In this document: piece after piece, positions 2,482 through 24,530 of the stretch | How the letters are laid out: each line of letters starts with the position of its first letter | Numbering within the stretch: the first letter of the stretch is position 1 | Source of the DNA: a bacterium | GTDB taxonomy: Bacteria; Zhuqueibacterota; Zhuqueibacteria; Oceanimicrobiales; Oceanimicrobiaceae | Assembly (NCBI GenBank): GCA_046757025.1 | Contig: JBHHXN010000072.1 | Span: forward strand, 1-24,530 | DNA length: 24,530 bases | Direction: 5' to 3' | The notes under the pieces: model-generated | The model's input: only the letters and a program-made list of their open reading frames with translations | Told to the model about the DNA's origin: nothing | Databases searched by the model: none | Position numbers and translations under genes: made by a program

Positions 2482-3132
2482 ATGTCTCAAATTTTTCATC
2501 CTAGTACGAATACCTTTTCAAAGGTGACCATCTTTGGAACGATGTTTTTTCTGGCCGCTCTGGGCTGGATCGTTCTGGCTATCGAACGCTCCTCTTATGT
2601 GACCCAAGCCAGCGTAGTTCGCGAACAACCGGTGCCGTTCAGCCACCGACACCATGTCTCGGACCTGGGCATCGACTGTCGCTACTGCCACACTTCAGTG
2701 GAAGAAAGCCCATTTGCGGGCATCCCACCCACCAAAACGTGCATGACCTGTCATTCCCAGATTCACAACACAGCCGAGATGTTGGAACCGGTGCGAGAAA
2801 GCTGGCGCACCGGTAAATCTCTGGAATGGGTCCGTGTGCACGATTTACCGGATTTTGTGTATTTCAACCACAGCATCCACCTGAAAAAAGGTGTGGGGTG
2901 TGAGACTTGTCACGGGCCTGTGGGCGATATGGCCCTGACCTGGAAACAGAATTCCTTGAACATGGAATGGTGCCTGGAGTGCCATCGGGCGCCGGAAAAA
3001 TTTGTGCGACCACGGGAGAACGTTTTTAACCTCCACTGGCAACCGCAAATCGAGCAGGAAATCCTGGGGGCGCAACTGTTAGAAAAATACCACATCAAGA
3101 GTGAAACCAATTGTTCAATTTGCCATAGATGA
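2482..3132 (+). CDS. actA: Alternative complex III pentaheme cytochrome c subunit
   Basis: N-terminal TM helix, QPVPFSHRHH and five CxxCH motifs (CRYCH, CMTCH, CETCH, CLECH, CSICH). First gene of the act cluster. Confidence 0.95.
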   Translation: MSQIFHPSTNTFSKVTIFGTMFFLAALGWIVLAIERSSYVTQASVVREQPVPFSHRHHVSDLGIDCRYCHTSVEESPFAGIPPTKTCMTCHSQIHNTAEMLEPVRESWRTGKSLEWVRVHDLPDFVYFNHSIHLKKGVGCETCHGPVGDMALTWKQNSLNMEWCLECHRAPEKFVRPRENVFNLHWQPQIEQEILGAQLLEKYHIKSETNCSICHR

Positions 3133-7534: not shown

Positions 7535-7569
7535 CCAAAGCTCTAATTGAAAATTGAAATTAAAGTACC

Positions 7570-8311
7570 GCCACTGATATTCACGGATTGAACACGGATA
7601 AAATGAGTTTAGAATTTGAAGATATTACAGAAGCAATAATTGGGGCTGCCTTTGAAGTCTATAATATTCTCGGCTATGGTTTTTTAGAGAAAGTATATCA
7701 AAAAGCATTACAGGTTGAACTGTTACGCCGGGGACATTCTGCAGAACTAGAACATGCTATAAAAGTGAAGTTTAAAGGTGTCATAGTCGGTGATTATGAA
7801 GCGGATCTGTTTGTGGATGGCAAAGTATTAGTGGAAATTAAAGTTGCAAAAAAATATAATCCGAAAGATGAGCCACAGTTGCTGAATGAATTGAAAGCAA
7901 CAAAAATAAGAGTCGGGCTACTCATTAATTTCGGCAAGCAAAAACTAGAATTCAAACGATTCAGTTATGGGTAAAAATCCGTGTGTAATCTGTACTACAA
8001 GCCGACAACATGGTGTTTTTTAGCAAAGTTTTGGACGCTTCAGAACCTATTTTAGCCACGGATTTACACTGATAAAACACAGATTTTAAAATATAAAGTA
8101 TTTGAAATGAACTTTTATCTTCAAGAACCTGTTGTTGATTGATTGTGAAATTAATAAGTAAGCTCAAGTACAAAAGTTTAAATAGTGGAACGAATAATCA
8201 TTTTGTTTTCATATACTAACGGTACTTAAAGGTATTTATCCGTGTCAATCGGTGTTAATCGGTGGCTAAATTATTGGGTTGCGGCTCTACAGTGCTGAGT
8301 GCATCTGTGGC
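7570..8311. mobile_element. Nested cassette with ~10-mer tandem-repeat inverted arms (CACGGAT-type) between actC and actD
   Basis: Left arm gccactgatattcacggattgaacacggata (7570-7600). Right-arm pieces aatccgtgtgtaatctgt (7976-7993) and gtgcatctgtggc (8299-8311). Inner pair tttagccacggatttacactgataaaacacagattt (8051-8086) and tttatccgtgtcaatcggtgttaatcggtggctaaa (8235-8270). Mobility is inferred. Confidence 0.7.
7603..7974 (+). CDS. GxxExxY protein (PD-(D/E)XK nuclease-like)
   Basis: GFLEKVY matches GxxExxY; ADLFVDGKVLVEIK is a D...ExK motif; QLLNEL and GLLINFG are typical. Visibly AT-richer than the flanking act genes. ATG at 7603, alternative TTG at 7588. Confidence 0.93.
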   Translation: MSLEFEDITEAIIGAAFEVYNILGYGFLEKVYQKALQVELLRRGHSAELEHAIKVKFKGVIVGDYEADLFVDGKVLVEIKVAKKYNPKDEPQLLNELKATKIRVGLLINFGKQKLEFKRFSYG

Positions 8312-8370
8312 TGTAACACTAAAAAATGAGTTTTTTATCAACACTGATCTATTCAGATCCCAAAAATATC

Positions 8371-8910
8371 ATGAATAAAGAACGCGAAATCTACGGTTTA
8401 TTAGCGGAATTTGAAAATCCCGAACAACTAATCGAGGCGGCAACGAAGGCGCGTGAGCACGGCTTTCAAAAAATGGACGCCTATACACCGTTTCCTGTGG
8501 AAGAGCTGCCGCAAGCAGTGGGCTTCAAAAAACCGATGCTGCCGCTCATCGTGCTCATTGGCGGCATCGTCGGGGCGCTGCTGGGATTTGGCATGCAATA
8601 TTACGCTTCGGTCATTTCGTACCCACTGAATGTGGGCGGCCGACCGCTGAATAGCTGGCCGTCGTTCATTCCCATAACCTTCGAAATGACGATTTTGGTA
8701 GCGGCCTTTTCTGCGGTACTCGGCATGTTTGCTTTGAACAAGCTGCCCATGCCGTACCATCCGGTATTTAACGTACCGCGTTTCAAACTGGCGTCGCGCG
8801 ACCGCTTCTTTCTGTGTATCGAAAGCAAAGACCCGCAATTCTATTTAAAACAAACCGCGGAGTTTTTAAAATCGCTGCATGCGGTGGAGGTATTTGAGGT
8901 GGAGCCGTGA
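8371..8910 (+). CDS. actD: Alternative complex III ActD (DUF3341)
   Basis: YGLLAEF, MDAYTPFPV, YPLNVGGRPLNSWPSFIPITFE, ASRDRFFL; two TM helices. An in-frame upstream ATG exists at 8326. Confidence 0.93.
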   Translation: MNKEREIYGLLAEFENPEQLIEAATKAREHGFQKMDAYTPFPVEELPQAVGFKKPMLPLIVLIGGIVGALLGFGMQYYASVISYPLNVGGRPLNSWPSFIPITFEMTILVAAFSAVLGMFALNKLPMPYHPVFNVPRFKLASRDRFFLCIESKDPQFYLKQTAEFLKSLHAVEVFEVEP

Positions 8911-8918
8911 TTTTATTT

Positions 8919-8960
8919 GAGGATAGAAAATAGAGAATAGAGGTTTGAAAATAGAAAATA
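8919..8960 (+). repeat. Heptamer tandem array (GAAAATA-like x6), left arm
   Basis: gaggata gaaaata gagaata gaggttt gaaaata gaaaata. Confidence 0.85.
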
Positions 8961-8964
8961 AATT

Positions 8965-9218
8965 TAGCCTGAACTATTCAAAAAAATATTAACGCAGAGT
9001 TCGCCGAGGACGCTGAGTTACACAGAGAAAATCCTAAGGATTTAAGACCATGAGAGTCAGGCATTGACCTGGAAGTGTTGCATAAAGCAATCGCCTTTCT
9101 CTGCGTCCTTTGCGAACTCTGCGTTTAGAAACTTGTTTTAACGTCAGACAATTACTTAACATGTATATATTAATCGCTTTAAGGCTTTCTCAAACAGATT
9201 TTGGAATAACCCAGGTTA
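8965..9218. mobile_element. MITE-like element with imperfect ~21-bp terminal inverted repeats, containing an inner 9-mer-armed inverted repeat
   Basis: Ends: tagcctgaactattcaaaaaa (8965-8985) vs revcomp of 9198-9218, taacctgggttattccaaaat. Inner arms: aacgcagagttcgccgaggacgctgagttacacagagaaa (8991-9030) vs revcomp of 9096-9127, taaacgcagagttcgcaaaggacgcagagaaa (14-bp exact core). Confidence 0.65.
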
Positions 9219-9286
9219 GGAATTAGGATTTTAAAAATCGTTGTGATAAATAGCTTTTTATCAGATAAATCCTCGATACGCGGGAT

Positions 9287-9346
9287 TTCATGGTTCGACT
9301 CCGCTCACCATGAAGAAGTTAGCTTCACCTGGAGCAGTCGAGGGGT
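9287..9346. repeat. REP-like TTCGAC...GCTC hairpin plus degenerate inverted partner
   Basis: ttcatggt-tcgactccgctc-accatgaa (8-bp stem, 9287-9314). gagcagtcga (9332-9341) is the revcomp of tcgactccgctc with a 2-nt deletion. Confidence 0.6.
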
Positions 9347-9383
9347 GCCGACTGATTTATCTCGACTTTCCAGCCAGACTTCC

Positions 9384-9515
9384 GGGCGTTTGTATAAAGC
9401 CGCGTTCATGAACAAAATCAACGAAGCCCTGGGAGAAGCCTGGCAGCACATCGGCGCCATGCTGAACAAAATGATCCAACGAGCAGATAGTTTTTGTCAA
9501 ACTAATATTAAATAG
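9384..9515 (+). pseudogene. Four-helix-bundle protein (TIGR02436 / 23S rRNA IVP-like) C-terminal remnant with internal deletion
   Basis: GRLYKAAFMNKINEALGEA|WQHIGAMLNKMIQRADSFC follows the family pattern RRY.AAF..KL..A.GEA...I..ML.KMI. The N-terminus and the ETQxWL segment are missing. Confidence 0.7.
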
Positions 9516-9525
9516 GGAAAATTAA

Positions 9526-10194
9526 GTGGCATTCATAAAAATCAATTTTCGATTTTCCATCTTCCATCATCTATCTTCTATCTTCAATCTTTTTATTTAT
9601 TTGAAAAATATTCGAAGATGGACAAACTATAAAATTATTTTATTAGCAGTCACAATAATCAACACAACCGCCTGCCGGCAGGACATGCACGATCAGCCCA
9701 AATTACAGCCGTTGGAAGCCAGTGATTTTTTCAAGGACGGCCGGGCTTCCCGGTCGCTGATCGAGGGCACCGTGGCACGCGGCCATTTAAACAATGACCC
9801 ACATTTATATCAGGGGAGAGTTGACGGAGAGCTGGTCTGGACGTTTCCTTTCCCGATCACCAAAGAAGTTTTGCGGCGCGGCGAAGAACGCTACAACATT
9901 TTCTGTTCGCCCTGCCACGATCAGCTTGGATATGGACGGGGAATGATTGTCCAGCGCGGTTTTCGACAGCCGCCCTCGTTTCACATCGACCGGCTGCGCA
10001 ATGCGCCAGCCGGACATCTTTTTGACGTCATCTCCAACGGTCTGGGCGCCATGTTTGATTATGCTGAACGCATTCCGGTCCACGACCGCTGGGCCATCGT
10101 GGCGTATATTCGCGTGCTGCAGTTGAGTCAAAACGCCACCATGGACGATGTGCCAGAAGAATTGCGACAACCGTTAATGGAAAACAATAAATGA
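9526..10194 (+). CDS. actE: Alternative complex III monoheme cytochrome c lipoprotein
   Basis: AC-RQDMHDQPK lipoprotein N-terminus, GTVARG, a single CSPCH, DRWAIVAYIRVLQLSQ. Start is uncertain: GTG 9526 (agggaa upstream) or TTG 9601. Confidence 0.92.
   Translation: MAFIKINFRFSIFHHLSSIFNLFIYLKNIRRWTNYKIILLAVTIINTTACRQDMHDQPKLQPLEASDFFKDGRASRSLIEGTVARGHLNNDPHLYQGRVDGELVWTFPFPITKEVLRRGEERYNIFCSPCHDQLGYGRGMIVQRGFRQPPSFHIDRLRNAPAGHLFDVISNGLGAMFDYAERIPVHDRWAIVAYIRVLQLSQNATMDDVPEELRQPLMENNK
9544..9592 (-). repeat. Heptamer tandem array (x7), right arm, inverted relative to 8919-8960
   Basis: aattttc gattttc catcttc catcatc tatcttc tatcttc aatcttt; revcomp units are gaaaatt, gaaaatc, gaagata and similar. 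Confidence 0.85.
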
Positions 10195-11363
10195 ACGATT
10201 TTGAGTCCACCAAACCGGTATTGAGTCAAGTCCAGCTCCGCGTCTTTATTTTCGGACTGGCGGGAATGGCCATTTGTGCTGCGGGCGCCTTTTACAATGC
10301 CGAGCAGTTTTTTCAATCCTACCTGCTGGGCTACGTCTTCTGGATCGGCATCGCACTCGGCAGCCTGGCTCTGCTGGCTTTACACCACCTTGTGGGCGGC
10401 GGCTGGGGATTCTCCATTCAGCGCGTTTTAGAAGCTGGCACACGTACTCTGCCCTTATTTGTGCTGCTATTTTTGCCGTTGCTTTTCAATATGCCGAAAC
10501 TCTACATTTGGGCGCAGCCGGAAAAGGTTGCCATGGACACCGTGCTGCAGCACAAAAGCGTTTATCTCAATGTACCCTTTTTCGGTGTACGGACCGGCAT
10601 TTATTTTGTCATCTGGGGAATTTTAATCTATTTATTGAACAAGTGGTCGCTGGCACTGGATCGAGCAAAGAACGCGCCTCTGCTCAGCCGCATTCAAAAA
10701 ATCTGCGGACCCGCCATCCTGCTGTACGTGCTCACGGTGACCTTTTCATCCATCGACTGGGTGATGTCGCTGGATCCGCACTGGTTTTCCACGATTTTCG
10801 GATTCGTGTTCGTCATCGGTCAGGCGCTGCTCACCCTGGCTTTTGCCATCATCTGGACGGGCAAACTCGCTAAATTCAGTCCTCTGGCGGAAGTCATTCA
10901 AAAGAAACATTTTCATGATCTGGGCAATTTGCTGCTGGCGTTCGTCATGCTCTGGGCCTACATCTCGCTGTCACAATTTCTCATCATCTGGTCTGGTAAT
11001 TTGCCGGAAGAGATCCCCTGGTATCTGCATCGTTTGCACGGCGGCTGGCAGTGGCTGGCTTTTGCGGTGGTGATTTTTCATTTCACTCTGCCGTTTGTGG
11101 TGCTGCTATCCCGGCGCAGTAAACGCCGGGTGGAAATTCTCACCCGGGTAGCATACCTGATTATCATCATGCGCCTGTTGGATTTGTTCTGGTTCGTGGC
11201 GCCTAATTTTCATGCAGAAAATATCCGCGTACATTGGCTGAACATTCTGGTTCCGCTGGCCATGGGCGGCGTATGGTTGGCCTTTTTTATCCAGCAACTC
11301 AAAACAAGGGCGCTGTTGCCCCTGCACGATCCCCGAATGAAAGAGGCATTTCATCATGAGTGA
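10191..11363 (+). CDS. actF: Alternative complex III membrane subunit ActF
   Basis: Polytopic; HHLVGGGWG, YLNVPFF, DWVMSLDPHWFSTIFG, HFHDLGNLL, SQFLIIWSGNLPEE. ATGA overlap with actE. Confidence 0.93.
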   Translation: MNDFESTKPVLSQVQLRVFIFGLAGMAICAAGAFYNAEQFFQSYLLGYVFWIGIALGSLALLALHHLVGGGWGFSIQRVLEAGTRTLPLFVLLFLPLLFNMPKLYIWAQPEKVAMDTVLQHKSVYLNVPFFGVRTGIYFVIWGILIYLLNKWSLALDRAKNAPLLSRIQKICGPAILLYVLTVTFSSIDWVMSLDPHWFSTIFGFVFVIGQALLTLAFAIIWTGKLAKFSPLAEVIQKKHFHDLGNLLLAFVMLWAYISLSQFLIIWSGNLPEEIPWYLHRLHGGWQWLAFAVVIFHFTLPFVVLLSRRSKRRVEILTRVAYLIIIMRLLDLFWFVAPNFHAENIRVHWLNILVPLAMGGVWLAFFIQQLKTRALLPLHDPRMKEAFHHE

Positions 11364-11787
11364 GAAGAAAAGAGAAGCCGTGAAAAAAAATCATTCTAAC
11401 TACGAACGCAGCGATGCAAAAATCCGTGCCATCACTTGGTCGGGAATAAGCTTGCTCGCGCTGATCTTTCTCATTTTTGTTGTCATATTTGGGGTGTTTC
11501 ATTTACTCAAAGAGAAGAGACAAAAATCCTTGCCCGTTCCATCGCCGCTGGCCGGTGCAAAGCAGCAGAAAGTCATCGAGTCACAGTTGTTGGTGCAACC
11601 GGCCATGGAGCTGGTAAAATTTCGGGCGCTGCAAGACTCCTTGAAATCCCATTATGGTTGGGTGGTGAAAGAAGCCGGCGTGGTGCGCATCCCTGTCGAT
11701 CGTGCGATGGAGCTCATGCTGCAGCGCGGTTTACCCGTGCGGCAAAATTTGTCAGTACAACCTCATGGGGAAGAAAGAATAAAATGA
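11356..11787 (+). CDS. actG: ActG-like single-TM subunit
   Basis: YERSD, one TM helix, YGWV...GVVRIPVDRAMELMLQRGLP. Position after actF. Confidence 0.75.
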   Translation: MSEKKREAVKKNHSNYERSDAKIRAITWSGISLLALIFLIFVVIFGVFHLLKEKRQKSLPVPSPLAGAKQQKVIESQLLVQPAMELVKFRALQDSLKSHYGWVVKEAGVVRIPVDRAMELMLQRGLPVRQNLSVQPHGEERIK

Positions 11788-11912
11788 GTTTGTCTGTCCA
11801 GTTAACTCGGAAACCGGTAGTTCTGAGAAGTTCTGTGACAAGGCGCAGAATGACAATAAAATTAAAATTTACCGGATAAAATGGAGAATCCTAAACAGTG
11901 AGGATTTATGCC

Positions 11913-12776
11913 ATGAAAAAAAAGAATTGTTTTCACCATTTTTTAAACGCATACGCGATTTTACTGCTGGTCGCGGTAGCCTGCCTGTGGACCCCGGCGG
12001 CTTCTCTTCTGGCGCAGGAAATCAAAGCCAGTCAGCAAATCGATGTGTTGGAAGAAGTGGGAATCGACCAAAAACTCAACGAGCAAATTCCTTTGAATTG
12101 GTTTTTCACCGACGCCGGCGGGCGTTCCGTGCAATTGCAGGAATATTTCAATGAAAAACCCGTGATCCTGGCTTTTGTCTATTATGAATGCCCCATGCTT
12201 TGCACCATGGTGCTCAACGGCTTGCTGCAAAGCATCAACACATTGAATTTTAACGTGGGCAGTCATTATGAGATCGTTACCGTCAGTTTCGATCCAGGAG
12301 AAACGCCCAAATTGGCGGCAGGGAAAAAAACCACTTATGTGAACAAATATGGCCGACGGGGCGCTGCAGATGGTTGGCATTTTCTCACCGGCGATGAAGC
12401 CGCCATCAAGGCGTTGACTCAGGCTGCGGGTTTCAAATACAAATACGATCCCGAAACCGACCAGTATATTCATGCCAGCGGGGTGATGGTGCTGACGCCG
12501 GAGGGCCGGCTTTCGCGTTATTTTTACGGTGTGGAATACTCCGCCCGCGATCTCAAGCTGGCGCTCATGGAAGCTTCAAAAAACAAAATCGGGTCGGCTG
12601 TCGATCAAATTTTGCTGTACTGCTATCACTACGATCCCACAACAGGAAAATACGGAGTGGCCATCATGCGCATCATTCGCGTGCTGGGCAGCGCCACCGT
12701 GATCATCATAGTAGCATTTATGCTCATCATGTTTCGCCGCGACAGGCGGGCAAAACGAGCCGCCATAACACATTAA
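11913..12776 (+). CDS. SCO1/SenC family copper chaperone
   Basis: Signal peptide, VGIDQKL, YYECPMLC (CxxxC), YIHASG, YCYHYDP and a C-terminal TM helix. ATG 11913 follows gagg; alternative GTG at 11898. Confidence 0.92.
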   Translation: MKKKNCFHHFLNAYAILLLVAVACLWTPAASLLAQEIKASQQIDVLEEVGIDQKLNEQIPLNWFFTDAGGRSVQLQEYFNEKPVILAFVYYECPMLCTMVLNGLLQSINTLNFNVGSHYEIVTVSFDPGETPKLAAGKKTTYVNKYGRRGAADGWHFLTGDEAAIKALTQAAGFKYKYDPETDQYIHASGVMVLTPEGRLSRYFYGVEYSARDLKLALMEASKNKIGSAVDQILLYCYHYDPTTGKYGVAIMRIIRVLGSATVIIIVAFMLIMFRRDRRAKRAAITH

Positions 12777-12792
12777 ATTTTGAGATTTCATC

Positions 12793-13737
12793 ATGGACAA
12801 AGGATTTAAATTATTACCGGAGCAAGCTTCCACCCTGGCAGGAAAAATCGATCTTCTCTATTTTTTTCTGGTGCTGGTGAGCCTCTTTTTTGCGGCGCTG
12901 ATATTTTTTCTCATCTATATTTTCGTGGTAAAATATCGCCGGCGTTCGGAAGACGAAGTCCCCAAAGAATTACCCGGACTGTTGAAACTGGAGCTGCTCT
13001 GGACCATCATCCCGCTGATTCTGGTGCTAGTGGTATTTGCCTGGGGCGCCTCGTTGTATTTTACCAGCTACTCGCCACCCGAAGATGTGCTGGAAATTTT
13101 TGTGGTGGGCAAACAATGGATGTGGTATGTGCAGCATCCCACTGGCCAGCGCGAAATTAATGAATTGCACGTTCCCATAGACCGAGCCGTGAAGTTGACC
13201 ATGGCCACCGAAGACGTCATCCACAGCTTTTACATTCCGGCATTTAGAATCAAAAAAGACGTGGTGCCGGGAAGATACACCACCATGTGGTTCGAAGCTA
13301 CCAAACCCGGCGAGTATCATTTGTTTTGTGCTGAATATTGCGGCACCAAACACTCTGAAATGAGAGGTCGGGTGGTGGTGATGGAACCCAATGATTACCA
13401 GAACTGGCTGAGCGGTGGGGCTGGCACGGAACCGATGAAAGTTTCGGGTGAGAAAAAATTTCAACAACTGGCCTGCCACACCTGTCACAAAGAGGTGCCC
13501 GGCGCCCGCGGCCCCTCGCTGGTCGGCATATTCGGACAGCCCGTGCTGCTGGAAAGCGGGCAAACAATGCTGGTTAACGAAGATTACATTCGAGAGTCCA
13601 TTCTCACCCCGAATGCCAAGATCAAAGCGGGCTTCAAACCGGTCATGCCGACTTTCAAAGGCCAGATCGACGAAATCAGCTTGCTGCAGATTACGGCTTA
13701 TATTAAATCTTTATCAAAAGATAGGAGCAATGATTGA
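12793..13737 (+). CDS. coxB: Cytochrome c oxidase subunit II with fused cytochrome c (caa3 type)
   Basis: Two TM helices, [20 protein letters not shown], CuA motif [12 protein letters not shown] and C-terminal CHTCH...MP. Confidence 0.96.
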
Positions 13738-15410
13738 TGAGCACCGCCGTTTTTAAACATCGCAGTTCCCAGTTGTCTGATGATCAAAATGGCTCTGAAA
13801 GAAATTACCTGAACGCCGGTTTCAGCGCCAAATCGTGGCTGCTAACCGTGGATCACAAGCGCATCGCCATTTTATATCTCATCGCCATCACGCTGTTTTT
13901 CTTTTTAGGCGGGATGTTTGCAGTGCTGATTCGGCTAGAGCTGCTCACACCGCAGGGCGATCTCATGCAGTCGGAAACCTACAACAAAATGTTTACCATG
14001 CACGGCATCATCATGATCTTCTTTTTTCTGATCCCGTCGATTCCGGCTGTGCTCGGAAACTTTCTCATTCCACTCATGATCGGCGCCCGCGACCTGGCGT
14101 TTCCGCGCATCAATCTGTTGAGCTGGTACGTTTACGTGGTTGGCGGCCTGTTTACGTTTGCCGCCATCGTCTTCGGTGGGGTGGATACCGGCTGGACGTT
14201 TTATACGCCCTACAGCAGCACGTACGCCAACACCAATGTGATTCTGGCGGCCATCGGTGTGTTTGTCACCGGTTTTTCGTCGATTTTAACTGGATTGAAT
14301 TTTCTGGTTACCATCCACAAAATGCGTGCTCCCGGGCTGACCTGGTTTCGACTGCCGCTGTTTGTGTGGGCGCATTATGCCACCAGCATCATTCAAATTT
14401 TGGGCACCCCGGTCGTGGCCATCGCCATCGTGCTGGTGGGCCTGGAAAGGCTGTTTCAGATCGGCATCTTCGATCCCAACCTGGGCGGCGATCCGCTGTT
14501 GTTTCAGCACCTGTTCTGGTTCTACTCACACCCGGCCGTGTATATCATGATTTTGCCGGGCATGGGCGTGATCAGCGAGATCATCACCTGCTTTGCAAAA
14601 AAGAAAATTTTTGGTTATCAATTCATCGCCTTCTCCAGCATCGCCATCGCGGTTATGGGCTTTTTAGTCTGGGGACACCACATGTTCACCAGCGGCCAAT
14701 CCATGTATGCCAGTCTGGTGTTTTCGATTTTGACGTTTCTGGTTGCAATTCCTTCGGCCATCAAAGTCTTCAACTGGACCGCCACGCTTTACAAAGGCTC
14801 GGTTTCTTATGAAGCGCCCATGCTGTACGCCCTCGGTTTTATCGGCTTGTTCACCGTGGGCGGGTTGACCGGCATTTTCCTCGGCACCCTGGCGGTGGAT
14901 GTACACGTACACGACACCTACTTTGTGGTGGCGCATTTTCATTACATCATGGTGGGCGGCGCCATCATGGCTTACTTGAGCGGCATTCATTTCTGGTGGC
15001 CGAAAATGACCGGCCGCCTCTATCCGGAAGGCTGGGCGCGTTTTTCCGCGCTGGTCATTTTCATCGGCTTCCACCTGACCTTTTTCCCGCAGTTCATCGT
15101 GGGCTACCTCGGCATGCCGCGGCGCTATCATGCTTATCCAGAAGAATTTCAAATCCTGAATGTGCTCTCCTCGGCTGGCGCCACCATACTCGGGGTGGGT
15201 TATTTGATCCCGTTGATATATTTTATCTGGTCCCTGCGCTACGGCAAAAAAGCCAGCGCCAATCCCTGGAACGCCAAAGGTCTGGAATGGGAACGGGTGC
15301 CTTCCCCGCCTACAACGCATAATTACGAAAACATACCGGTGGTGACGGAAGAAGCTTATGAATATACTGCACAGCAGTCGAAGGAAGTTTTACAAAATGA
15401 AAAAATCTAA
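13737..15410 (+). CDS. coxA: Cytochrome c oxidase subunit I (A2 type)
   Basis: [24 protein letters not shown] (YS motif of A2 enzymes), [26 protein letters not shown] aggag at 13723-13727. Confidence 0.97.
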
Positions 15411-15448
15411 TTTAGCCATACAATTCTTAATTGACATCGCAGCCATTA

Positions 15449-15555
15449 GTCATTGCGAGTCCCGCGTTTTTTGCGAGACGAAGCCATCTCTTAACTTTCA
15501 TAAAATCAGGGGATTGCCTCGTCATCCCGCTTTTGGCGGGATTCCTCGCAATGAC
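15449..15555. repeat. Complete REP/RPE-like palindromic element GTCATTGCGAG...CTCGCAATGAC
   Basis: Perfect 11-bp terminal inverted repeat. Internal gaagccatctc / ggggattgcctc pair and side hairpins tcccgc..gcgaga and atcccgc-ttttg-gcgggat. Confidence 0.9.
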
Positions 15556-15625
15556 AATTTAATTGGTAAACTAATTTCCAAATCAAGACACTAGTTTATA
15601 AAACTGAAATTAACGGAGAGTAAAC

Positions 15626-16270
15626 TTGTCTGAAAAACCCGGCGCATTAGCCCATCATTTTGAAGATATGGAGCAGCAATTCGAAGCCTCCACACTGGGT
15701 ATGTGGGCGTTTTTGGTAACGGAAATTTTGTTTTTCGGCGGCTTGTTTGCGGGTTATCTGGTGTACCGCACCAAGTATCCACAGGCGTTTGATCTGGGCA
15801 GCCACGAGCTGGACATCGTTCTGGGCGCCATCAACACCGCCGTGCTGATTCTCAGCAGCCTGACCATGGCGTTAGCCGTGCACTGGGGGCAAAAAGGCCA
15901 GAGCAAAAGAATCGTGCTGTTTCTCATTTTCACCATGATTTTAGGCGCGACCTTTCTCGGCATCAAGGCCGTGGAATATGCGCACAAAGCCCACGAACAT
16001 CTGGTACCCAGCACCGGCTTCCTTTTCGAGGGAGCGCACGCGGATCAGGTGCGCATTTTCTTCTCCTTCTATTTTGCCATGACCGGCATGCACGCCTTTC
16101 ACATGATCATCGGTCTGGGGCTGCTGGCTTACCTGGTAATTCAAGCATGGAAAGGCAAGTACACCGCCAAATACAACACCCCCATCGACTTAATTGGACT
16201 TTACTGGCATTTTGTGGATATTGTCTGGATTTTTCTGTTTCCACTGCTTTATTTAATAGGAAGAAATTAA
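15626..16270 (+). CDS. coxC: Cytochrome c oxidase subunit III
   Basis: GMWAFLVTEILFFGGLF, NTAVLILSS, TGMHAFH, GLYWHFVDIVWIFLFPLLY. TTG start after ggagag. Confidence 0.95.
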   Translation: MSEKPGALAHHFEDMEQQFEASTLGMWAFLVTEILFFGGLFAGYLVYRTKYPQAFDLGSHELDIVLGAINTAVLILSSLTMALAVHWGQKGQSKRIVLFLIFTMILGATFLGIKAVEYAHKAHEHLVPSTGFLFEGAHADQVRIFFSFYFAMTGMHAFHMIIGLGLLAYLVIQAWKGKYTAKYNTPIDLIGLYWHFVDIVWIFLFPLLYLIGRN

Positions 16271-16272
16271 AA

Positions 16273-16575
16273 ATGTCACAACATATCGTACCGCAAAGAG
16301 TCTATTTTCTGATCTTTTTTATCTTGATCGTTTTAACCGCCATGACGGTGTGGGTGGCGTTTCTGGATTTAGGCCCCATCAACGACGTGCTGGCGCTGTC
16401 CATCGCCAGCGTCAAAGCCATGCTGGTGATCCTCTATTTCATGCACGTACGCTACAGCAGCAAGCTCATCGGAATTTTCGTGGGCGCGGGCTTTTTGTTT
16501 TTGCTGATTCTGCTGGTGTTTACCATGAGCGATATCCTGACACGGGGCTGGGGGACGCCGGCGGTGGGATGGTAG
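16273..16575 (+). CDS. coxD: Cytochrome c oxidase subunit IV (COX4_pro family)
   Basis: ATG 2 nt after the coxC stop; three TM helices; IASVKAMLVILYFMHVRY. Confidence 0.92.
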   Translation: MSQHIVPQRVYFLIFFILIVLTAMTVWVAFLDLGPINDVLALSIASVKAMLVILYFMHVRYSSKLIGIFVGAGFLFLLILLVFTMSDILTRGWGTPAVGW

Positions 16576-17385: not shown

Positions 17386-18780
17386 ATGAGCCATCGCATT
17401 GAAAAAGATACCATGGGAACCATCGAGGTGCCCGCGGACAAGTACTGGGGCGCGCAGACCCAGCGCTCGTTAGGCAATTTCAAAATCGGCGGACAGCGCA
17501 TGCCCATCGAAATTATCCACGCTTTTGCCATACTCAAAAAAGCCGCCGCCCTCACCAATTTCGAGGCCGGCATCCTGCCCGAAGACAAAGCGCAGATCAT
17601 CGCGCAGGTATGCGGTGAGATTTTGGCGGGTAATTTGGACGAGCACTTTCCGCTGGTGGTGTGGCAAACCGGCTCCGGCACCCAGTCCAACATGAACGTC
17701 AACGAAGTGATCTCCAATCGCGCCATCGAGTTGCTGGGCGGTGAAATGGGCTCGAAAAATCCCATCCATCCCAACGACGACGTCAACAAGTCGCAATCTT
17801 CAAACGACACCTTTCCAACCGCCATGCATATCGCCGCCTACAAATTGCTCACGGAAAACACCTTGCCGAAACTCCAGGCTTTGCACGACACGTTGGCTGC
17901 GAAAGCCAAAGATTTCATATCCATCGTCAAAATTGGCCGCACGCATTTGATGGATGCCACGCCCCTCACGCTCGGTCAGGAATTTTCTGGATACGCATCG
18001 CAATTAAAGCACGGCATGCAGGCCATCAAGAATACTTTGCCGCATTTGTCCGAGCTGGCGCTGGGTGGCACCGCCGTGGGCACGGGCATCAACACGCCGC
18101 CGGGATTTGCTGAAAACGTGGCGAAAAAAATTGCCGAATTGACTGGCTTGCCGTTTGTGACCGCGGAGAACAAATTCGAATCCCTGGCCGCACACGATGC
18201 CATTGCCGAATCGCACGGAGCGTTAAAAACCGTGGCCGTGAGTTTGATGAAAATCGCCAACGATATTCGATTGCTCGCTTCCGGACCCCGCTGCGGCATC
18301 GGTGAGATCATGTTACCAGCCAACGAGCCCGGCTCCTCCATCATGCCCGGCAAAGTCAATCCCACACAGGCCGAAGCGCTGACCATGGTGGCGGCGCAGG
18401 TCATGGGCAACGACGTGGCCATCAACGTCGGCGGCATGAACGGACATTTTGAGCTGAACGTGTTCAAACCGGTGATGATCTACAATCTGCTCATGTCAGC
18501 AAGACTGATCGGAGACGCCTCCGAGTCGTTCAATAAAAATTGTGCAGTTGGCATCGAACCCAATCACGAAGCTATCAAAAAGAATCTGGAGAATTCGCTT
18601 ATGCTGGTCACCGCATTAAATCCCGTCATCGGCTACGACAAAGCGGCGGCGGTGGCGAAGAAAGCGCACCAGGAGGGCAGTACGTTGCGAGAGGCGGTAG
18701 TCAGCCTGGGGTATCTCACTGCAGAAGATTTCGATAAGCACGTGGTGCCGGAAAAAATGGTGGGCGAGCTGCCGAAATAA
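17386..18780 (+). CDS. fumC: Class II fumarate hydratase
   Basis: [59 protein letters not shown] and signature [16 protein letters not shown] gaggag. Confidence 0.98.
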
Positions 18781-18789
18781 TCGTCTTTG

Positions 18790-18825
18790 AATCCCCGGTG
18801 ATCATTATTTCACCGGGGATTTTTT
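18790..18825 (+). terminator. Rho-independent terminator of fumC
   Basis: aatccccggtga-tcattatt-tcaccggggatt (12-bp stem) ending in a T-run, 9 nt after the stop. Confidence 0.9.
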
Positions 18826-19163
18826 CATTCTCACAAATCTATCTTGTTTTTACAAAACTTTCTACTTTAAAATGATGCTCTGTTCTCAAAAGTGAGAAAA
18901 AAGTGCTCTGTGTTCCTCTGATCTACACACATTGAGAGAGGAACCAGAATTCCAATTTCAAAAATTTCGTTTTTTTGTTGTAAAAGTATATGTTCAATAT
19001 TTTTATATAATTAGACTTAGTACTGGTCAATTATTTCGACTTTCATCCTAACCTATGCGGTCAATCACACACAATGGAATAAAAATTGCTTAATTAACCC
19101 AAACCCGAAATATCCGGCACATAACCGACGTTTTGAATATGGAAGCTGAAAAGGAGACTAATT

Positions 19164-19412
19164 GTGAATGACCAGGACGATTTCTTGAATAAGCCATTCC
19201 ACCAGCCTGCCGAATCCCAAAGCCACTCTTGTTTTGCTGTTCGCGATGGCGATTGGATTATTTTTCGCTGCTCCATCTGTGCAGATTACGAACGCAGAAT
19301 CAACTGGCGAACCGGTAAAATGAAGGTGCACAGTAAAAATTCCGCTCAAATTCGTCACAATGGCGTGTACCTGCCGAACGAATACAAAGAAGTCTATATG
19401 AATAGCAATTAA
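19164..19412 (+). CDS. Small hypothetical protein, possible Zn-binding (H-x-C...CxxC...H)
   Basis: Strong RBS aaggag (19151-19156) before GTG; HSC...DGDWIIFRCSICADYERRINWRTGKMK...RH. Confidence 0.7.
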   Translation: MNDQDDFLNKPFHQPAESQSHSCFAVRDGDWIIFRCSICADYERRINWRTGKMKVHSKNSAQIRHNGVYLPNEYKEVYMNSN

Positions 19413-19507
19413 TAGACTTGTACTTTATCGTTTAGTAAAAATCCAGTCCGCTTCAGGTAGGTGCCTCACATCTCATGCGCCCACCCAATCCAACTCCTGC
19501 CTGCGAA

Positions 19508-19815
19508 CAACTTTTTGAAAAAAGTTGCATGACCTCTTCCTTCGACTGCACTTCGAAGAAAAGCTCTTTTTTTGGGTTTTCAAACTTTAGGCTTGTGTGA
19601 AAAGTCAAACTCAGGGGTATTTGTCATTCCACACCTTGCGGGACTGGCAGGAGGCCTCTTTTTTTATTCGACGTAATGTGCTGTTTATTAAAAAGATTCT
19701 TCCAGAATGACTGTAGTGGCGAACTTGGTATTTAGTTGATGTTATGATTTTTCACACAGTCTCTACACTCAGAATGAAATTGGTAACAAAATTACCTTAC
19801 TCTGCGCAGGATGCT
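19508..19815. repeat. Cluster of degenerate palindromic/REP-like pieces with a nested inverted-repeat element
   Basis: Hairpin caacttttt-ga-aaaaagttg (19508-19527) and ccttcgactgcac (19539). Inverted repeat tgtgtgaaaagtca (19594-19607) / tgatttttcacaca (19745-19758) encloses gtcattc (19623) ... agattcttccagaatgac (19694-19711). ctcagaatga follows at 19768. Confidence 0.55.
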
Positions 19816-19880
19816 GTCACGCCCAAAATTCTCTTTTTTACTGAAATTCAAAGCCAAAACTTCTCTCACTCAAAATAGAT

Positions 19881-20843
19881 TCAATACACATTCAGAAACC
19901 CCACCTCCAGGTATTCATCCTCCGGGGTCGGGCCATTGCCTTCCTGACTGAACGACACGGCTGCTTCCAGAAGATAGGTGCCGATTTCCTGCAAAGCGAT
20001 GGCGCGGGTTTTCACGGGCACCATTTTAGCAGAAGGCAAAATCTCCTTGCTTTGCCCAACAATTTGTTTGGTACCCCCGGCCAGGCGTTTAGCATAAATT
20101 CTTACTGCCACATCGACCAGCTCTTCTGCAGTTAACTTCAAATCAGAAAGATCCATTTGGAACTGAATTTCAAAAGGCTGCTCCTGATGCAGCATGTTGC
20201 TGGGTTTGCGCGAACTTTCTGGCAGGATGACCACGTCCCGCAATCGTGAAACTTGCTGTGGTTTCCCCTCCCCTTCCAGCGCCTCCATTTCAGGCAAACT
20301 TTCTTTACCCACCTCTGACGTTTCCGCTTGTGTTTGCGAAGATTGAAAATTCACAGCTTCGTCTGGTAACTGCGGCAGGTGGTTGGAAATGAATTCAATG
20401 ATAACCTGTTCATCCAGACTTCCAAAGGCCTTTTTGTCTTTCGATAGCGGGTGTTTAATTCTACCCTGGTATTGTCCCTGGCGGGGATAAATATCGATTT
20501 GAAAAGTTGATTTGGAGGAGGAAATTTCCTTATCGATCAATTCCGTTTCGGTTTCCTGAGCCTGCTGGATTTCCAGTTTGTTCAGCTTGGCATTTAACTC
20601 CTCAAATTCATTTTGCAGATGCTGCCGTTGGCGTTCTGCCTCCCGTTGTTCAAGCCGGGACTCTTCAAGCTGTTTTTGTATTTCATCTATATTAGCGTTG
20701 GATTTTTGCAATGCTTTTGCATTTGCCACCAACTCAGATTCCAGCTTATCAATGGTTTTATTAGCCTCAAGCAATTCTTGCTGCAACTGGGCTTTGGTTT
20801 TACCATTTTGTTTTGCCGACGTTCCTTTTCCTGAAGCATTCAT
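19881..20843 (-). CDS. Hypothetical protein: N-terminal coiled coil, small alpha/beta domain, C-terminal beta-sandwich-like domain
   Basis: RBS cgaggt. Residues ~17-100 are a Q/E/K/L heptad-rich stretch; middle STFQIDIYPRQGQYQGRIKHPLS..KAF..LD...IEFI; C-terminal ...QPFEIQF...RIYAKRL...GTYLLEAAVSF...LNVY. Confidence 0.85.
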   Translation of the reverse strand: MNASGKGTSAKQNGKTKAQLQQELLEANKTIDKLESELVANAKALQKSNANIDEIQKQLEESRLEQREAERQRQHLQNEFEELNAKLNKLEIQQAQETETELIDKEISSSKSTFQIDIYPRQGQYQGRIKHPLSKDKKAFGSLDEQVIIEFISNHLPQLPDEAVNFQSSQTQAETSEVGKESLPEMEALEGEGKPQQVSRLRDVVILPESSRKPSNMLHQEQPFEIQFQMDLSDLKLTAEELVDVAVRIYAKRLAGGTKQIVGQSKEILPSAKMVPVKTRAIALQEIGTYLLEAAVSFSQEGNGPTPEDEYLEVGFLNVY

Positions 20844-20993
20844 GAAAGAACCTCGCTAATTTATTTTTTAAACGAAAATTGTTTAATCGGAATCATTCAG
20901 ATCCCCAAAAACAAAAAGCACAAATTCTGGTTTCATTAATTTATATGAGAACGGACAATTTTTTGACTCATTCACTGCAAAAACTTTAAATTC

Positions 20994-21028
20994 ATTTTGT
21001 CCTTTGTCCTTTGTCCCTTGTCCTTTGT
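20994..21028. repeat. Heptamer tandem array (CCTTTGT x4-5)
   Basis: attttgt cctttgt cctttgt cccttgt cctttgt. Confidence 0.85.
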
Positions 21029-21074
21029 ACTGATGGGTGCTGCGATGAAAATAGATTTCCCTTTCAGGCATAAT

Positions 21075-21116
21075 AAATCACGAAGGAGCCGAAACCAACC
21101 TGCTCCTTCGTGATTT
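21075..21116 (-). terminator. Strong hairpin downstream of 21215..21781 (terminator or processing/stability element)
   Basis: aaatcacgaaggagc, 12-nt loop, gctccttcgtgattt: a perfect 15-bp stem, T-rich on both exits. Confidence 0.7.
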
Positions 21117-21214
21117 TTGCTTTCATCAACATTTGTACTTTTTCCAAATCTGATGGAAAATTAAATCTCGCATCAATGTTAGAGAAAAGAATTCTACAAA
21201 TGGCAATTAAAAGA

Positions 21215-21781
21215 TTATGCTTTGTAGAACTGAACCAACCCGAAATCGGCAAATGCCGCGATGGGGGCTGGCTTGCCCGTGGGCCCGGCAAAAGTCAGGG
21301 TAGCCACCAGTCGGTAAACTCCCGGGTCGGTTACGGTATTTGCAGGAATGCTGACCGTATGTGAATAATCATGATTTTTCCCTGTAAAGGCCGAACCGCC
21401 GATCTCAAATTTGACTTTGCTTGGTGCCGGCAGCAGGCTGTCATCAAACTCTCCTTTACCCATTTGTTCCAGGTAAATTCTGGGCGTGTAGTTGCCGGAA
21501 ATCAGCGGGCAGAAATCGCCTTCATCAGTCCATTTAAAATCCACAGTCCATGGCTGATCGAGCTGAATCGCTTTGCTGTCGCGGTAAGCCCATTGAGAAT
21601 AGTACTTTGTAAATTCGCCCGTAGGTACCGAAGTTTTCTTTTTGGGATCCCATTTATATTGTTCATAGGCACTCCCTTCTTTGCCTTCGGCAAACCCAGC
21701 CGAAGAAGCGCCTTCAGATAAAGCAGCCGCACCGGCGAGACCAAAATGAGGCAACGAGTCCTCTAATTTAAAAGAAGCCAT
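21215..21781 (-). CDS. Hypothetical protein with a beta-sandwich-like domain
   Basis: RBS aaggag (21788-21793). IQLDQPWTVDFKW...RIYLEQMG...SIPANTVTDPGVYRLVATLTF...FADFGLVQFY. No clear signal peptide. Confidence 0.88.
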   Translation of the reverse strand: MASFKLEDSLPHFGLAGAAALSEGASSAGFAEGKEGSAYEQYKWDPKKKTSVPTGEFTKYYSQWAYRDSKAIQLDQPWTVDFKWTDEGDFCPLISGNYTPRIYLEQMGKGEFDDSLLPAPSKVKFEIGGSAFTGKNHDYSHTVSIPANTVTDPGVYRLVATLTFAGPTGKPAPIAAFADFGLVQFYKA

Positions 21782-21914
21782 ATCTTACTCCTTTATATAA
21801 ATATCTTTCGGGAACCAGTTCACCCCAAGCTATTTTATTTAGCTTTAGTTCCCAAAGATGTTTGTATGAATGAAATGAATTAAAATCTCCCGAGAGGAAT
21901 GTGAACGTAGCTCA

Positions 21915-21968
21915 AATATAAAGAAAAAAATTTAACCGGCGCTTAAAAGGCACTTAATTTGCACTTAA
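21915..21968 (-). promoter_or_regulatory. Putative SARP-type operator: four direct repeats with 11-bp period followed by a -10 box
   Basis: Minus strand reads TTAAGTGcaaa TTAAGTGcctt TTAAGCGccgg TTAAATT, 8 nt, TATATT (21920-21915). TTAA occurs at 21965, 21954, 21943 and 21932. No good -35. Confidence 0.7.
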
Positions 21969-23296
21969 AACAATTCCGCATTGACATTATCTTTTTTGAT
22001 TTGTTCATACAATTTCAGCGTGGTTTGTGTCGGGCTGACTTCCAGCTCCGATTCCAGGATTTCCGTACATTTCCGAAACTGCTTGATGGCTTTGTCTCTT
22101 TGTCCCAGGCGATAAAAGCACCACATGAGCCGGCGATGAATATCTTCCCGACAATTGTCTTTGAACAAAATATGCTCACACAGGTGGATGGCCGTGTCGG
22201 GTTTACCGTCCAGGCTGTAGTGCCGGCTGAGTCGATCCAAAATGACCAGATAAATTTCCTTGAGATTCTCCCGATCCAGCGTGGGCCAGTTTTCATACAG
22301 CTCTTCCTGCATGAAATCGGCGTTGTACAGCGCCGCTGCCAGCTCGTACTCGCTCAGGGCAGCCTGGGTATTTTTCTCTCTTTCAATGCTTTGCGCCACT
22401 TTCCAATGAAGAAGAAATTCTTCTACATCCAGCCAGATTTCAACCTCGGGATTCAAATAATAACATTCTTCTTTGAAAAGGATGTACTCGTGCAGCGGGT
22501 CACGCACCTGAAAGGTCTGACGCAATCCGTGCAAAGCCACATTCAGGCAATTGCGCGCGGAATCCGGTGTGGAGTCCGGCCAGAATTTGTCCATGAGGAT
22601 ATCCCGATAAATCCGCCTTTTATGATTGAAAGCCAGATAGGCAAAGATGGATCGCCCTTTTCGGCTGGGCCACGTTTGAATTTCGCTGGTCTTCAGAAAT
22701 GTGCGGAAGTTACCCAGAAAATGAACTTGCATTTTGGGCAGATTGACAATCACTGTGCAAGGCTGCTTTTCCGGTTTGTCAAAGCCAAGGCTTTTAAAGC
22801 GCCATTGCAGGAACTGTGCCAAACGCATCAGCCAGGATGGGTTGCCCGCGCTGTTCCCGCGTGCTGCCAGAATGTGCCAATTACTCGGTCTACCATTTTT
22901 TACCTTTTGATCGTTCAATTGTGGGTGAGGTTTATTTACCTCCAGCAGGCGTTTAACTCGGTCACACAGGATTTCTGGTTCGAGGGGTTTTTCGATGAAA
23001 TCTTTTGCGCCACTGCGAAATGCTTTGATGATGATCTCTTTCGTCGGTGCCGCAGCGACAAAAATGATTGGCAGCTCTGGCGCCACCCGATGCAATTTCT
23101 TCAACACCTCCAGGCCATCTTTATTTGGCAGGCAACGTGCAATGATCGCCAGCGTGATTTTATTTTTTTTCGCTAGCGCCACCGCCCTTTGTCCGCTGGG
23201 TACCCACAGCAACTGAACTTGACCGTCGAATTCCCTGGCCAGCAGTTGCATTGTCAGCTCATCTTCATCAATAACGAGAATTGATCGACCGTCCAT
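21965..23296 (-). CDS. Transcriptional regulator: atypical receiver + OmpR-type wHTH + BTAD (SARP family)
   Basis: REC fold (ILVIDED...LPNKDG...PIIFV...GAKDFIEKP). wHTH: VHFLGNF...WPSRKGRSIFAYL...RDILMDKFWPD...ARNCLNVALHGLR. BTAD: WLDVEEF...DNCREDIHRRLMWCF...G.R..A..QF..C...L..EL.V.P...T..LY. Confidence 0.93.
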   Translation of the reverse strand: MDGRSILVIDEDELTMQLLAREFDGQVQLLWVPSGQRAVALAKKNKITLAIIARCLPNKDGLEVLKKLHRVAPELPIIFVAAAPTKEIIIKAFRSGAKDFIEKPLEPEILCDRVKRLLEVNKPHPQLNDQKVKNGRPSNWHILAARGNSAGNPSWLMRLAQFLQWRFKSLGFDKPEKQPCTVIVNLPKMQVHFLGNFRTFLKTSEIQTWPSRKGRSIFAYLAFNHKRRIYRDILMDKFWPDSTPDSARNCLNVALHGLRQTFQVRDPLHEYILFKEECYYLNPEVEIWLDVEEFLLHWKVAQSIEREKNTQAALSEYELAAALYNADFMQEELYENWPTLDRENLKEIYLVILDRLSRHYSLDGKPDTAIHLCEHILFKDNCREDIHRRLMWCFYRLGQRDKAIKQFRKCTEILESELEVSPTQTTLKLYEQIKKDNVNAELF

Positions 23297-24144
23297 GACG
23301 TTTCCTGAACTTGAAAAATGAAAAATTTAATTGACCGCTTTTCAAAAACACTAAAACGATTTCCTACAAAGCGGATTTTCAGCTAATACGCAGATGTTTG
23401 ATTTCGTGAATGAAAAAAAATCACAAAGGGAAGAGACGTCTTTCTACTCTTCAAAACATTCCGAAGCCACTCAAAAACTTTTGACTTCAGGAAAGTGATT
23501 GCTCCCCAAACTGAAAAATAGCAATCAGGTAAAAAGAGGGCACTGCATGGAGGATAATTTAGAATGTTGATCTATATGAAAAAGAATTTCTCCTTCAAAC
23601 AGGAAAAATCTTATTTTTGCCCTGAAAAGACTTTGCACAAATATGCTGGCTTAACAATTAATTCTAATTTTACTTTTACACGGTTAAACTAGATAGCTTT
23701 CTTTGAAATTTTCAGACCGCAACAGGCATCGACAGACCATTCTCCCCGAGATGAGTTCACGATTTGATGAAAAATGGCAGGAAGGATATTCGAATGGTGA
23801 AAACAAAGAAATGCAAATCTTCAAATTTCAAGTAAATAATATAAAACGATTCTGCAAAAAGCAAGGATTTTTTAAAAATAAGTTTAAATGAACGGCTGTT
23901 AGGAAACCATACCCAATCATACATTTTGTGTGAGCAGTTCGTGCTTAAAGAAAGAAATCCTGAAAAACTGGCACACTCATCAGCAAATTAGAATCCGAAA
24001 AAAGGACTTTGATTTAAACCACTAAATTGTAACAATTCGTTTCAAACCTAAAAATATTTTGCATTTCAGTCATTTAATTCGTAGTTTTTTCATCTCACAA
24101 ATTTAATATAGTTCACAAAAATTCAACGTAAACCAGGTGGGCAT

Positions 24145-24530
24145 TTGTCCGGAATCAGAAACAATTGCACAGTGCTTGTGACACTTTTGATCTTGGGATT
24201 TGATGGTCAGATTTTTGCGGGAAAACACGGCGAAGATTCAAAAGACCAGACCAAACCCTATGTGCCGATGGTGGAGGCGATCAAAGTCGAGAAAGCGCCG
24301 GTCATCGATGGAGAGATTCTCCGCGAAGAAGTCTGGCAAGCTGCCAAACCAGTGACGCAGTTCTGGCAAACCACACCGAATGAAGGTGAAAAGGCTTCTG
24401 AGAAGACGGAAGTGCGGGTCATTTACACAACCGAAAACCTTTATTTTGGCGTCTATTGTTACGACAAAAATCCCAAGGGCATCATCGTTTCCGATAGCCG
24501 GCGGGATGCGTCACTCAATGAAACCGACTG
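24145..24530 (+). CDS. Secreted CBM9-like / DUF5916-type protein, truncated by the window end
   Basis: Not in the ORF track. TTG after aggtgg, a signal-like N-terminus, then APVIDGEI...VWQAA...FWQTTPNEGEKASEKTEVRVIY..ENLYFGVYCYD..P..I....RRD, open to the edge. Confidence 0.82.
   Translation, partial: MSGIRNNCTVLVTLLILGFDGQIFAGKHGEDSKDQTKPYVPMVEAIKVEKAPVIDGEILREEVWQAAKPVTQFWQTTPNEGEKASEKTEVRVIYTTENLYFGVYCYDKNPKGIIVSDSRRDASLNETD

Follow-up and report, generated by a model that had tools for sequence, protein, structure and literature searches.

A SARP-linked gene module with paralogous Ig-like proteins that likely builds a chemically hardened protein structure

Introduction

The L-ENA cluster of Bacillus (ena3A, exsL, and l-bclA) combines a small stand-alone beta-sandwich subunit with a longer protein, and the C-terminal domain of that longer protein is a low-identity paralogue of the subunit, its N-terminal part anchors elsewhere, and the cross-links are oxidative (disulfide) (PMC11362473). 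A locus with a similar plan lies in contig JBHHXN010000072.1 (assembly GCA_046757025.1) of an Oceanimicrobiaceae bacterium from the phylum Zhuqueibacterota; we refer to the whole stretch analyzed, 24,530 nucleotides (nt), as the window. The locus comprises a SARP-type regulator gene (R), a gene for a stand-alone protein (A), and a gene for a longer protein (B) that ends in an A-like domain (D), together with a small gene (C) beyond B. The module likely builds an undescribed, chemically hardened protein structure, since its relatives often add tyrosine-oxidizing enzymes.

The locus differs from L-ENA in predicted fold and in content. Ena proteins are DUF3992 jelly-rolls, whereas A and D model as immunoglobulin-like (Ig-like) domains: Pfam assigns neither of them, nor about 48 relatives of A, to DUF3992 or to any other family over the A domain, and the structural matches listed for both are Ig-like. 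The module is further set apart from L-ENA by its SARP regulator, together with a small CxxC gene and oxidases that are optional, and its assembly is something that we infer from the genes. The SARPs of Streptomyces, such as AfsR, ActII-ORF4, and PimR, resemble R in combining OmpR-type and BTAD domains, and their operators consist of heptamers with 4-nt spacers, the last repeat lying about 8 nt before the -10 box (PMC10972967, PMC11301090). R differs from them in its N-terminal pseudo-receiver, its AT-rich heptamer, and its non-actinomycete hosts, and instead of an antibiotic cluster it is predicted to target a small operon of structural type.

A second group of similar systems comprises hardened materials. 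Mussel 3,4-dihydroxyphenylalanine (DOPA) glue, insect cuticle, peroxidasin-linked collagen IV, and Bacillus spore dityrosine recall relatives of our locus in their Tyr/Lys/Pro-rich repeats with tyrosinase and in their heme peroxidase and hypobromous acid (HOBr) chemistry, and tyrosinases, heme peroxidases, and HOBr are known protein cross-linkers (PMC8746199). In contrast to these materials, to which it has no sequence relation, the module places a substrate-like gene and an enzyme in one bacterial operon, without export signals. Encapsulin shells have the HK97 fold and confine oxidative cargo; like those nanocompartments, the module sets a small shell-like gene beside peroxidase-type enzymes, but A models as an all-beta Ig-like sandwich and has no Pfam or PHROG match. 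Among the best structural neighbors, the C-terminal carbohydrate-binding domain of Wzt shares 14% identity and is tied with unrelated Ig-like domains. Neither a Wzt_C profile match nor a fusion to an ATP-binding cassette (ABC) ATPase was found, A being stand-alone and D being fused to a coiled coil or a helix-hairpin-helix (HhH), and unlike Wzt the module has no ABC transporter. No description of the module was found in the literature searched, subscription papers and supplements lying largely outside that search. As a genetic module it appears to be new; the mechanism that we propose for it is a hypothesis.

Results

A and D are paralogous Ig-like domains

A sequence-only reading of this DNA had aligned A with the C-terminal part of B by eye, in four collinear blocks. 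Pairwise BLASTP gave a marginal match covering the last two blocks only (E = 0.007). Profile-profile comparison of 9 and 8 sequences reproduced all four blocks, register included (probability 95.5, E = 1.5e-8, 107 columns), and hhalign on deeper alignments of A and D reached a probability of 98.3 and an E value of 1.8e-14 over 108 columns. The same Ig-like fold had been expected for both domains, and the AlphaFold2 models and a structural search agree with this: A is modeled as a beta-sandwich with a predicted local distance difference test score (pLDDT) of 77.9, and B (pLDDT 85.1 overall) as a beta-sandwich at residues 197-320, with a single long helix at residues 17-106 where a coiled coil had been proposed. 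The view of B as a coiled coil plus an A-like domain stood for both of these parts, but it overlooked a third, a separate middle domain (M, residues 115-155) that is predicted to consist of three strands and a helix. M did not match the family of a small neighboring open reading frame (ORF).

The leading structural neighbors common to A and D were Wzt-C (6o14), Brr2 Sec63 (3im1), and RbmA (4be5), with RhoGDI also found. D matched 6o14 with a Z score of 10.7 (root-mean-square deviation 2.4 over 106 residues) and A matched it with a Z score of 8.6 (3.0 over 116 residues); the best match of A reached 9.3 and was generically Ig-like. Given Z scores of 8 to 11 with many ties, these matches fix the fold class and nothing beyond it. 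Ester-bond adhesins, which are marked by the motif HxDxxDxxQ, had been suggested by fold matches and were dropped as a candidate family, the motif being absent from the alignments.

The most conserved residues of A are Glu7, Glu105, Gly88, Gly108, Tyr139, Tyr156, and Pro173, and D lacks both the N-terminal arm and the conserved glutamates of A. An insert at residues ~24-69, rich in Tyr, Trp, and Lys (5, 2, and 6 residues, respectively), is private to the window's A. We found no family match for A in Pfam, NCBIfam, PHROG, or PADLOC and no solved structure related to it by sequence (best E = 0.61). B likewise has no family in these libraries except for coiled-coil noise, a weak PADLOC match to JetC. 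Obvious signal peptides had been reported as lacking, and a crude hydropathy check bears this out for A and B, neither of which has a signal-like hydrophobic N-terminus (maximal Kyte-Doolittle 12-mer of 1.3 and -0.4, respectively); by the same crude check, 0 of 150 A-family proteins exceeded a 12-mer value of 2.0 and none had a Tat-like motif.

The module recurs across phyla with exchangeable parts

Word-indexed searches for homologues recovered very little (1 and 13 matches), and it was a full HMMER scan with a nine-protein A profile that revealed the A family, with 847 cluster representatives (50% clustering) at E ≤ 0.001. Nearly all of the A relatives among the matches listed are stand-alone proteins of 140-170 amino acids (aa). 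The hosts found are mostly Chloroflexota, Acidobacteriota, and members of the window's phylum, where A has a patchy distribution (20 of 167 genomes); a first-pass search in which few candidates were scored found A in 5 of 301 genomes from the phylum of a Chloroflexota genome. One of the carriers, Kouleothrix aurantiaca (L057), is in culture. A distant A subfamily (profile probability 90.8) occupies the same position in six further genomes, and the ESM Atlas offers, as leads only, similar-looking clusters without names in Actinomycetota, Cyanobacteriota, Chloroflexota, and Pseudomonadota. A-like domains, single or tandem, are also fused to pYEATS, caspase, and CyanoTRADDas_TM domains (P0057, P0062, P0073, and P0158). 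Viral contigs searched with a single A protein contained no relative, and viral folds gave no A match at E ≤ 0.001. The plasmid collection yielded one A match (L056:9869-10342, Nonomuraea gerenzanensis), in an 11.9-Mb record filed as a plasmid, and none with a second query.

We surveyed 147 loci: 21 from the window's own phylum, 46 from other genomes (one duplicate dropped), and 80 from metagenomes. Neighbors were counted by distance only, in loci with enough flank. The regulator, A, B, and C occurred together in 7 of the first 7 loci, with R divergent in two. Chloroflexota and Acidobacteriota share the order regulator-A-B with the window's phylum. Near A we found a B-like gene in 20/20 own-phylum, 30/40 other-genome, and 23/42 metagenome loci, a BTAD or sigma-54 regulator in 15/18, 23/35, and 8/22, and a small partner gene in 15/18, 24/34, and 13/19; a B-like gene or an oxidase lay within 2.6 kilobases of A in 20/20, 35/40, and 36/42. 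Later B models were built partly from surveyed loci, and the non-circular figure is the 19 of 47 other-genome loci in which D was detected by a model built from the window's phylum alone. A conserved neighborhood of the regulator and both paralogs had been predicted, and these genes do co-occur across phyla. The three-gene module first drawn at 19881..23296 has all three minus-strand ORFs in their places, although a fourth conserved gene, C, lies outside it.

The domains joined to D are interchangeable. B proteins of Chloroflexota and Acidobacteriota keep M and D, but their N-terminus is an HhH instead of a coiled coil, and in L072 and L137 D forms the C-terminus of a heme peroxidase, with an internal stop upstream in L072. 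Acidobacteriota loci carry a sigma-54 activator and a different small gene, and tandem A copies are present in L063, L104, L105, L107, L112, and L013. Cell-wall hydrolase genes adjoin the module, with SLT fusions in about 11 loci and CHAP, DUF2272, and GH19 genes in one each. A recurring 610-770-aa protein that adjoins the module ends in an SLT lytic transglycosylase domain, before which lies an N-terminal part that is conserved but unannotated (L049:3372-5216, L050, L051, L055, L112, L189, L192, and L199-L201), often with a second HhH + D-like gene at the same locus.

A Tyr-rich tail on A tracks a neighboring tyrosinase

In 33 of the 147 loci, A or A-B is followed by an oxidase gene of the same orientation: a tyrosinase in 7, an animal-type heme peroxidase in 7, a vanadium haloperoxidase-like protein in 4, a GMC oxidase in 14, and a flavin adenine dinucleotide (FAD) oxidase in 1. 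The vanadium haloperoxidase-like proteins match a PDB bromoperoxidase (E = 6e-74), and in one genome a haloperoxidase gene sits between two A copies. The presence of tyrosinase goes together with a Tyr-rich N-terminal tail on A: wherever the start is visible at a tyrosinase locus (6 of 6), this tail contains 8-18 Tyr, compared with 0-1 at 25 other oxidase loci. The count leaves out one tyrosinase locus cut by a contig end and one GMC locus that lacks a start call. In close relatives that have no tyrosinase, the tails are acidic and contain no Tyr (L142, L082, L147, and L149). On the A tree, from a quick maximum-likelihood search with 137 A cores, the tyrosinase label changes three times, and these changes are forced by well-supported branches. 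Many A cores contain 5-12 Cys.

A predicted SARP-type operator precedes A

Pfam identifies in R a BTAD domain above the cut-off (E = 3.9e-19), a Response_reg domain (2.6e-18), and, below the cut-off, Trans_reg_C (8e-4), which reaches 1.6e-6 and 7.9e-6 in R homologues. R thus has the SARP layout, an OmpR-type DNA-binding domain followed by BTAD. Canonical response regulators carry a phospho-acceptor Asp after beta-3 of the receiver. The window's R has Ala53 at this position, and the Asp is absent in 9 of 10 R homologues when these are aligned with 2 ordinary receivers. Judged by sequence, R is a new SARP-type regulator with a pseudo-receiver and a standard operator, at which its binding is predicted.

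The heptamer array upstream of A is distinct from 200 dinucleotide shuffles in the window (P = 0.005), and its 11-bp period and its distance of ~8 nt to a -10-like hexamer follow the layout of SARP target promoters. A matrix built from the window's four heptamer copies was scanned over 21 own-phylum loci, among them the window: the array reaches the lowest P value of 200 shuffles in 15 and is borderline in two more. These 17 are the loci that have a BTAD gene; the 4 negative loci have none in the fetched stretch. The array remains before A where R is divergent. Outside the window's phylum, a motif-free test for an 11-bp period was formally weak, with P ≤ 0.05 in 8/25 BTAD, 1/14 sigma-54, and 11/64 other loci, and by eye a TTAA-type word recurs 22 bp apart in ~16/25 BTAD best windows versus 0/14 sigma-54 loci. 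The same heptamer word is visible in Chloroflexota-type BTAD loci. The earlier suggestion of a dedicated regulator for A and B gains from this: a conserved SARP-type operator tracks the BTAD gene, and R is predicted to bind it.

Three further signals noted earlier are also present: a strong ribosome-binding site (AAGGAG) before the start of A, a structured leader (-19.5 kcal/mol, z = -3.2, equaled by 1 of 200 shuffles), and a hairpin downstream of A (Table 1). This hairpin likely attenuates the transcript or stabilizes its A part; a simple terminator scan did not call it, and the sigma-70 and terminator scans gave chance levels. The proposal that A is a major product and B a scarcer adaptor, in which the expression ratio is inferred, fits the ribosome-binding site and the A-B hairpin, as well as the presence of A in tandem and the exchangeability of the N-termini joined to D.

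Two features of the A leaders may be added. A near-palindrome (TCTCCGGAGA-like) lies at about 21886-21895 on the minus strand of the window, ~20 nt after the -10-like box, and also in the leaders of L011, L046, and L053; it could possibly be a second regulator site or an RNA-binding site. Upstream of L013:10863, two complete repeat + -10 units stand in tandem before the first A copy, and no such unit was seen before the second A copy of this locus, which lies behind the haloperoxidase gene.

Discussion

At a rough probability of 0.45, we favor the reading in which A serves as the main building block of a structure that assembles by itself and is cross-linked by oxidation, with D docking partners on A. 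Binding of R to the 11-bp-period repeats would switch on A and B, probably in response to a ligand or protein signal, given a receiver without the phospho-acceptor Asp. A would be made in bulk in the cytoplasm and would assemble as a coat, matrix, or fiber, and the hairpin after A would keep B scarce. Through the shared fold, D could join the A assembly and carry with it whatever is fused before D, namely, the coiled coil and M here, the HhH and M in Chloroflexota and Acidobacteriota, and heme peroxidase in two loci. Where a locus has them, tyrosinases, peroxidases, and oxidases would form cross-links at Tyr, Cys, and Lys residues of A, and neighboring cell-wall hydrolases might release or place the structure. 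A subunit with a paralogous anchor has a precedent in Ena3A and ExsL (PMC11362473).

More tentatively, non-sporulating bacteria of several phyla may possess a one-operon kit for sclerotized material, made up of an Ig-fold polymer, a tethering D, an exchangeable cross-linker, and a SARP pseudo-receiver switch. In such a kit, D would tether DNA-binding, coiled-coil, or peroxidase modules, enzyme chemistry would co-evolve with the subunit tail, and mussel-glue-like Tyr repeats would be paired with tyrosinase.

Several observations weigh against a cross-linked A structure. The window's locus contains no oxidase, and the 94.8%-complete genome to which it belongs gave no tblastn match to tyrosinase, heme peroxidase, or vanadium peroxidase seeds. 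An oxidase occurs at just 2 of 20 own-phylum loci, and the window's A includes no more than one Cys. Of 102 loci with flank, 11 lack both B and an oxidase. The three tyrosinase changes on the A tree may equal one gain and two losses, and because the 14 GMC loci form one clade and several loci are near-copies, the counts overstate independence. The Ig-like fold is generic, its neighbors are mostly soluble binding domains, and the conserved A residues could equally form a ligand or metal site. Finally, the crude check found no export signal in the A family or B.

The lack of signal peptides would suit an intracellular scaffold or cage, in which A, much like an encapsulin, confines quinones, HOBr, or radicals without being a substrate and D is a cargo tag. 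We consider this alternative unlikely. Every recurring enzyme yields reactive products, and the two heme peroxidase-D fusions resemble tagged cargo, yet most loci have no enzyme, and no HK97 or capsid fold appears among the structural matches listed. Moreover, the Tyr-rich tail tracks tyrosinase specifically, so a substrate role suits A better than a shell role.

It also seems doubtful that A and D act as soluble domains that bind a ligand (glycan, lipid, or metal) or serve as chaperones (such as a tyrosinase caddie) in a sensing or enzyme-maturation unit, with B relaying a signal to DNA or a partner via the HhH or M. The leading neighbors, which include the Wzt carbohydrate-binding domain, Der f 2/NPC2 (ML), and RhoGDI, speak for such a role, but these matches are generic, with Z scores of 8-11 and many ties. 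The conserved acidic residues of A, the HhH in B homologues, and the tandem A-like add-ons on a caspase and a pYEATS protein are consistent with it as well. The enzymes, however, use different cofactors (Cu, heme, vanadate, and FAD), which makes one chaperone for all of them unlikely, and the Tyr-rich repeats and tandem A arrays would be left unexplained.

Quite improbable, finally, is a stress, defense, or programmed-lysis unit of multicellular-type bacteria, in which R would sense damage, A and B would form a signaling scaffold, and oxidases and hydrolases would be effectors: fusions of A-like domains to caspase, pYEATS, and a TRADD-associated transmembrane domain, ~14 loci where SLT, CHAP, DUF2272, or GH19 genes adjoin A or B, and the patchy distribution (20/167 and 5/301 genomes) point toward it, but the fusions make up 3 of 150 proteins listed, the window's neighbors are housekeeping genes, and among known anti-phage systems there is no PADLOC model (nor a PHROG match) for A, C, or B', with B showing only its one weak coiled-coil match to JetC.

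Whatever A does, the locus takes SARP promoter logic well beyond Streptomyces. The module also defines a large unnamed family (847 clusters), for which the operon is clear, an operator is predicted, and the chemistry can be tested. Should A prove to be a cross-linked structural subunit, it would be a bacterial counterpart, outside spore formers, of DOPA- and dityrosine-hardened animal materials. This would also give a physiological role to orphan bacterial tyrosinases, animal-type heme peroxidases, and vanadium haloperoxidases, and it would provide a compact biomaterial that is encoded genetically and brings its own docking tag.

Layout of the locus, gene C, and neighboring genes

In the window's genome, A, B, and C are single-copy genes, and the parts of the locus are collected in Table 1.

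Table 1. Genes and predicted signals of the module, with positions in the window
Feature	Position	Strand	Description
R	21965..23296	-	443 aa; SARP-type, with receiver, OmpR-type DNA-binding, and BTAD domains; predicted pseudo-receiver with Ala53
Heptamer array	21929..21968	-	four TTAAGYG-like direct repeats with an 11-bp period; predicted R binding sites
TATATT -10-like hexamer	21915..21920	-	8 nt 3' of the fourth repeat
Leader hairpin of A	21803..21859	-	stops just short of the ribosome-binding site
A	21215..21781	-	188 aa; stand-alone, modeled as an Ig-like beta-sandwich; likely major subunit
Hairpin 3' of A	21075..21116	-	-26.6 kcal/mol, z = -5.1, 0 of 200 shuffles as good
B	19881..20843	-	320 aa; coiled coil 17-106, M 115-155, flexible linker, D ~197-320
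C	19164..19412	+	82 aa; convergent on B; GTG start with AAGGAG before it

An alignment of 8 C homologues shows invariant His, Cys, CxxC, and His residues, and C is likely a zinc-binding accessory or regulator, to judge from this pattern. It has no PHROG or PADLOC match and, like A, D, and M, its sequence falls in no family of the libraries searched. The small gene at the same position in Chloroflexota gave an hhalign value of 11.5% against C, and the two have in common only their position and an H..CxxC..H pattern. C is present in 33 of 167 genomes of the window's phylum, and in several relatives it occurs without A or B, often beside pel genes. Such C-like genes, some of them shortened or doubled (L188:6149-10094, L197:3733-7095, L195:4356-6286, and L193), adjoin pelF/pelG exopolysaccharide genes and an OPT transporter gene; in the window's genome, pelF/pelG lie on another contig. 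Elsewhere, three Acidobacteriota loci (L062:5988-6365, L064, and L069) have, by eye, a lone bacterial-microcompartment hexamer-like gene after the small partner gene.

No Rfam family was found in 18800-24530. Between A and B, at 20996-21030, the window contains five tandem copies of a TTTGTCC-like 7-mer, for which conservation was not seen and which we take to be akin to short intergenic heptamer repeats. The module's surroundings are ordinary housekeeping genes: an Alternative complex III and cytochrome c oxidase operon at 2482-16575, with an inserted PD-(D/E)XK gene at 7588-7974, followed by fumarase C at 17386-18780.

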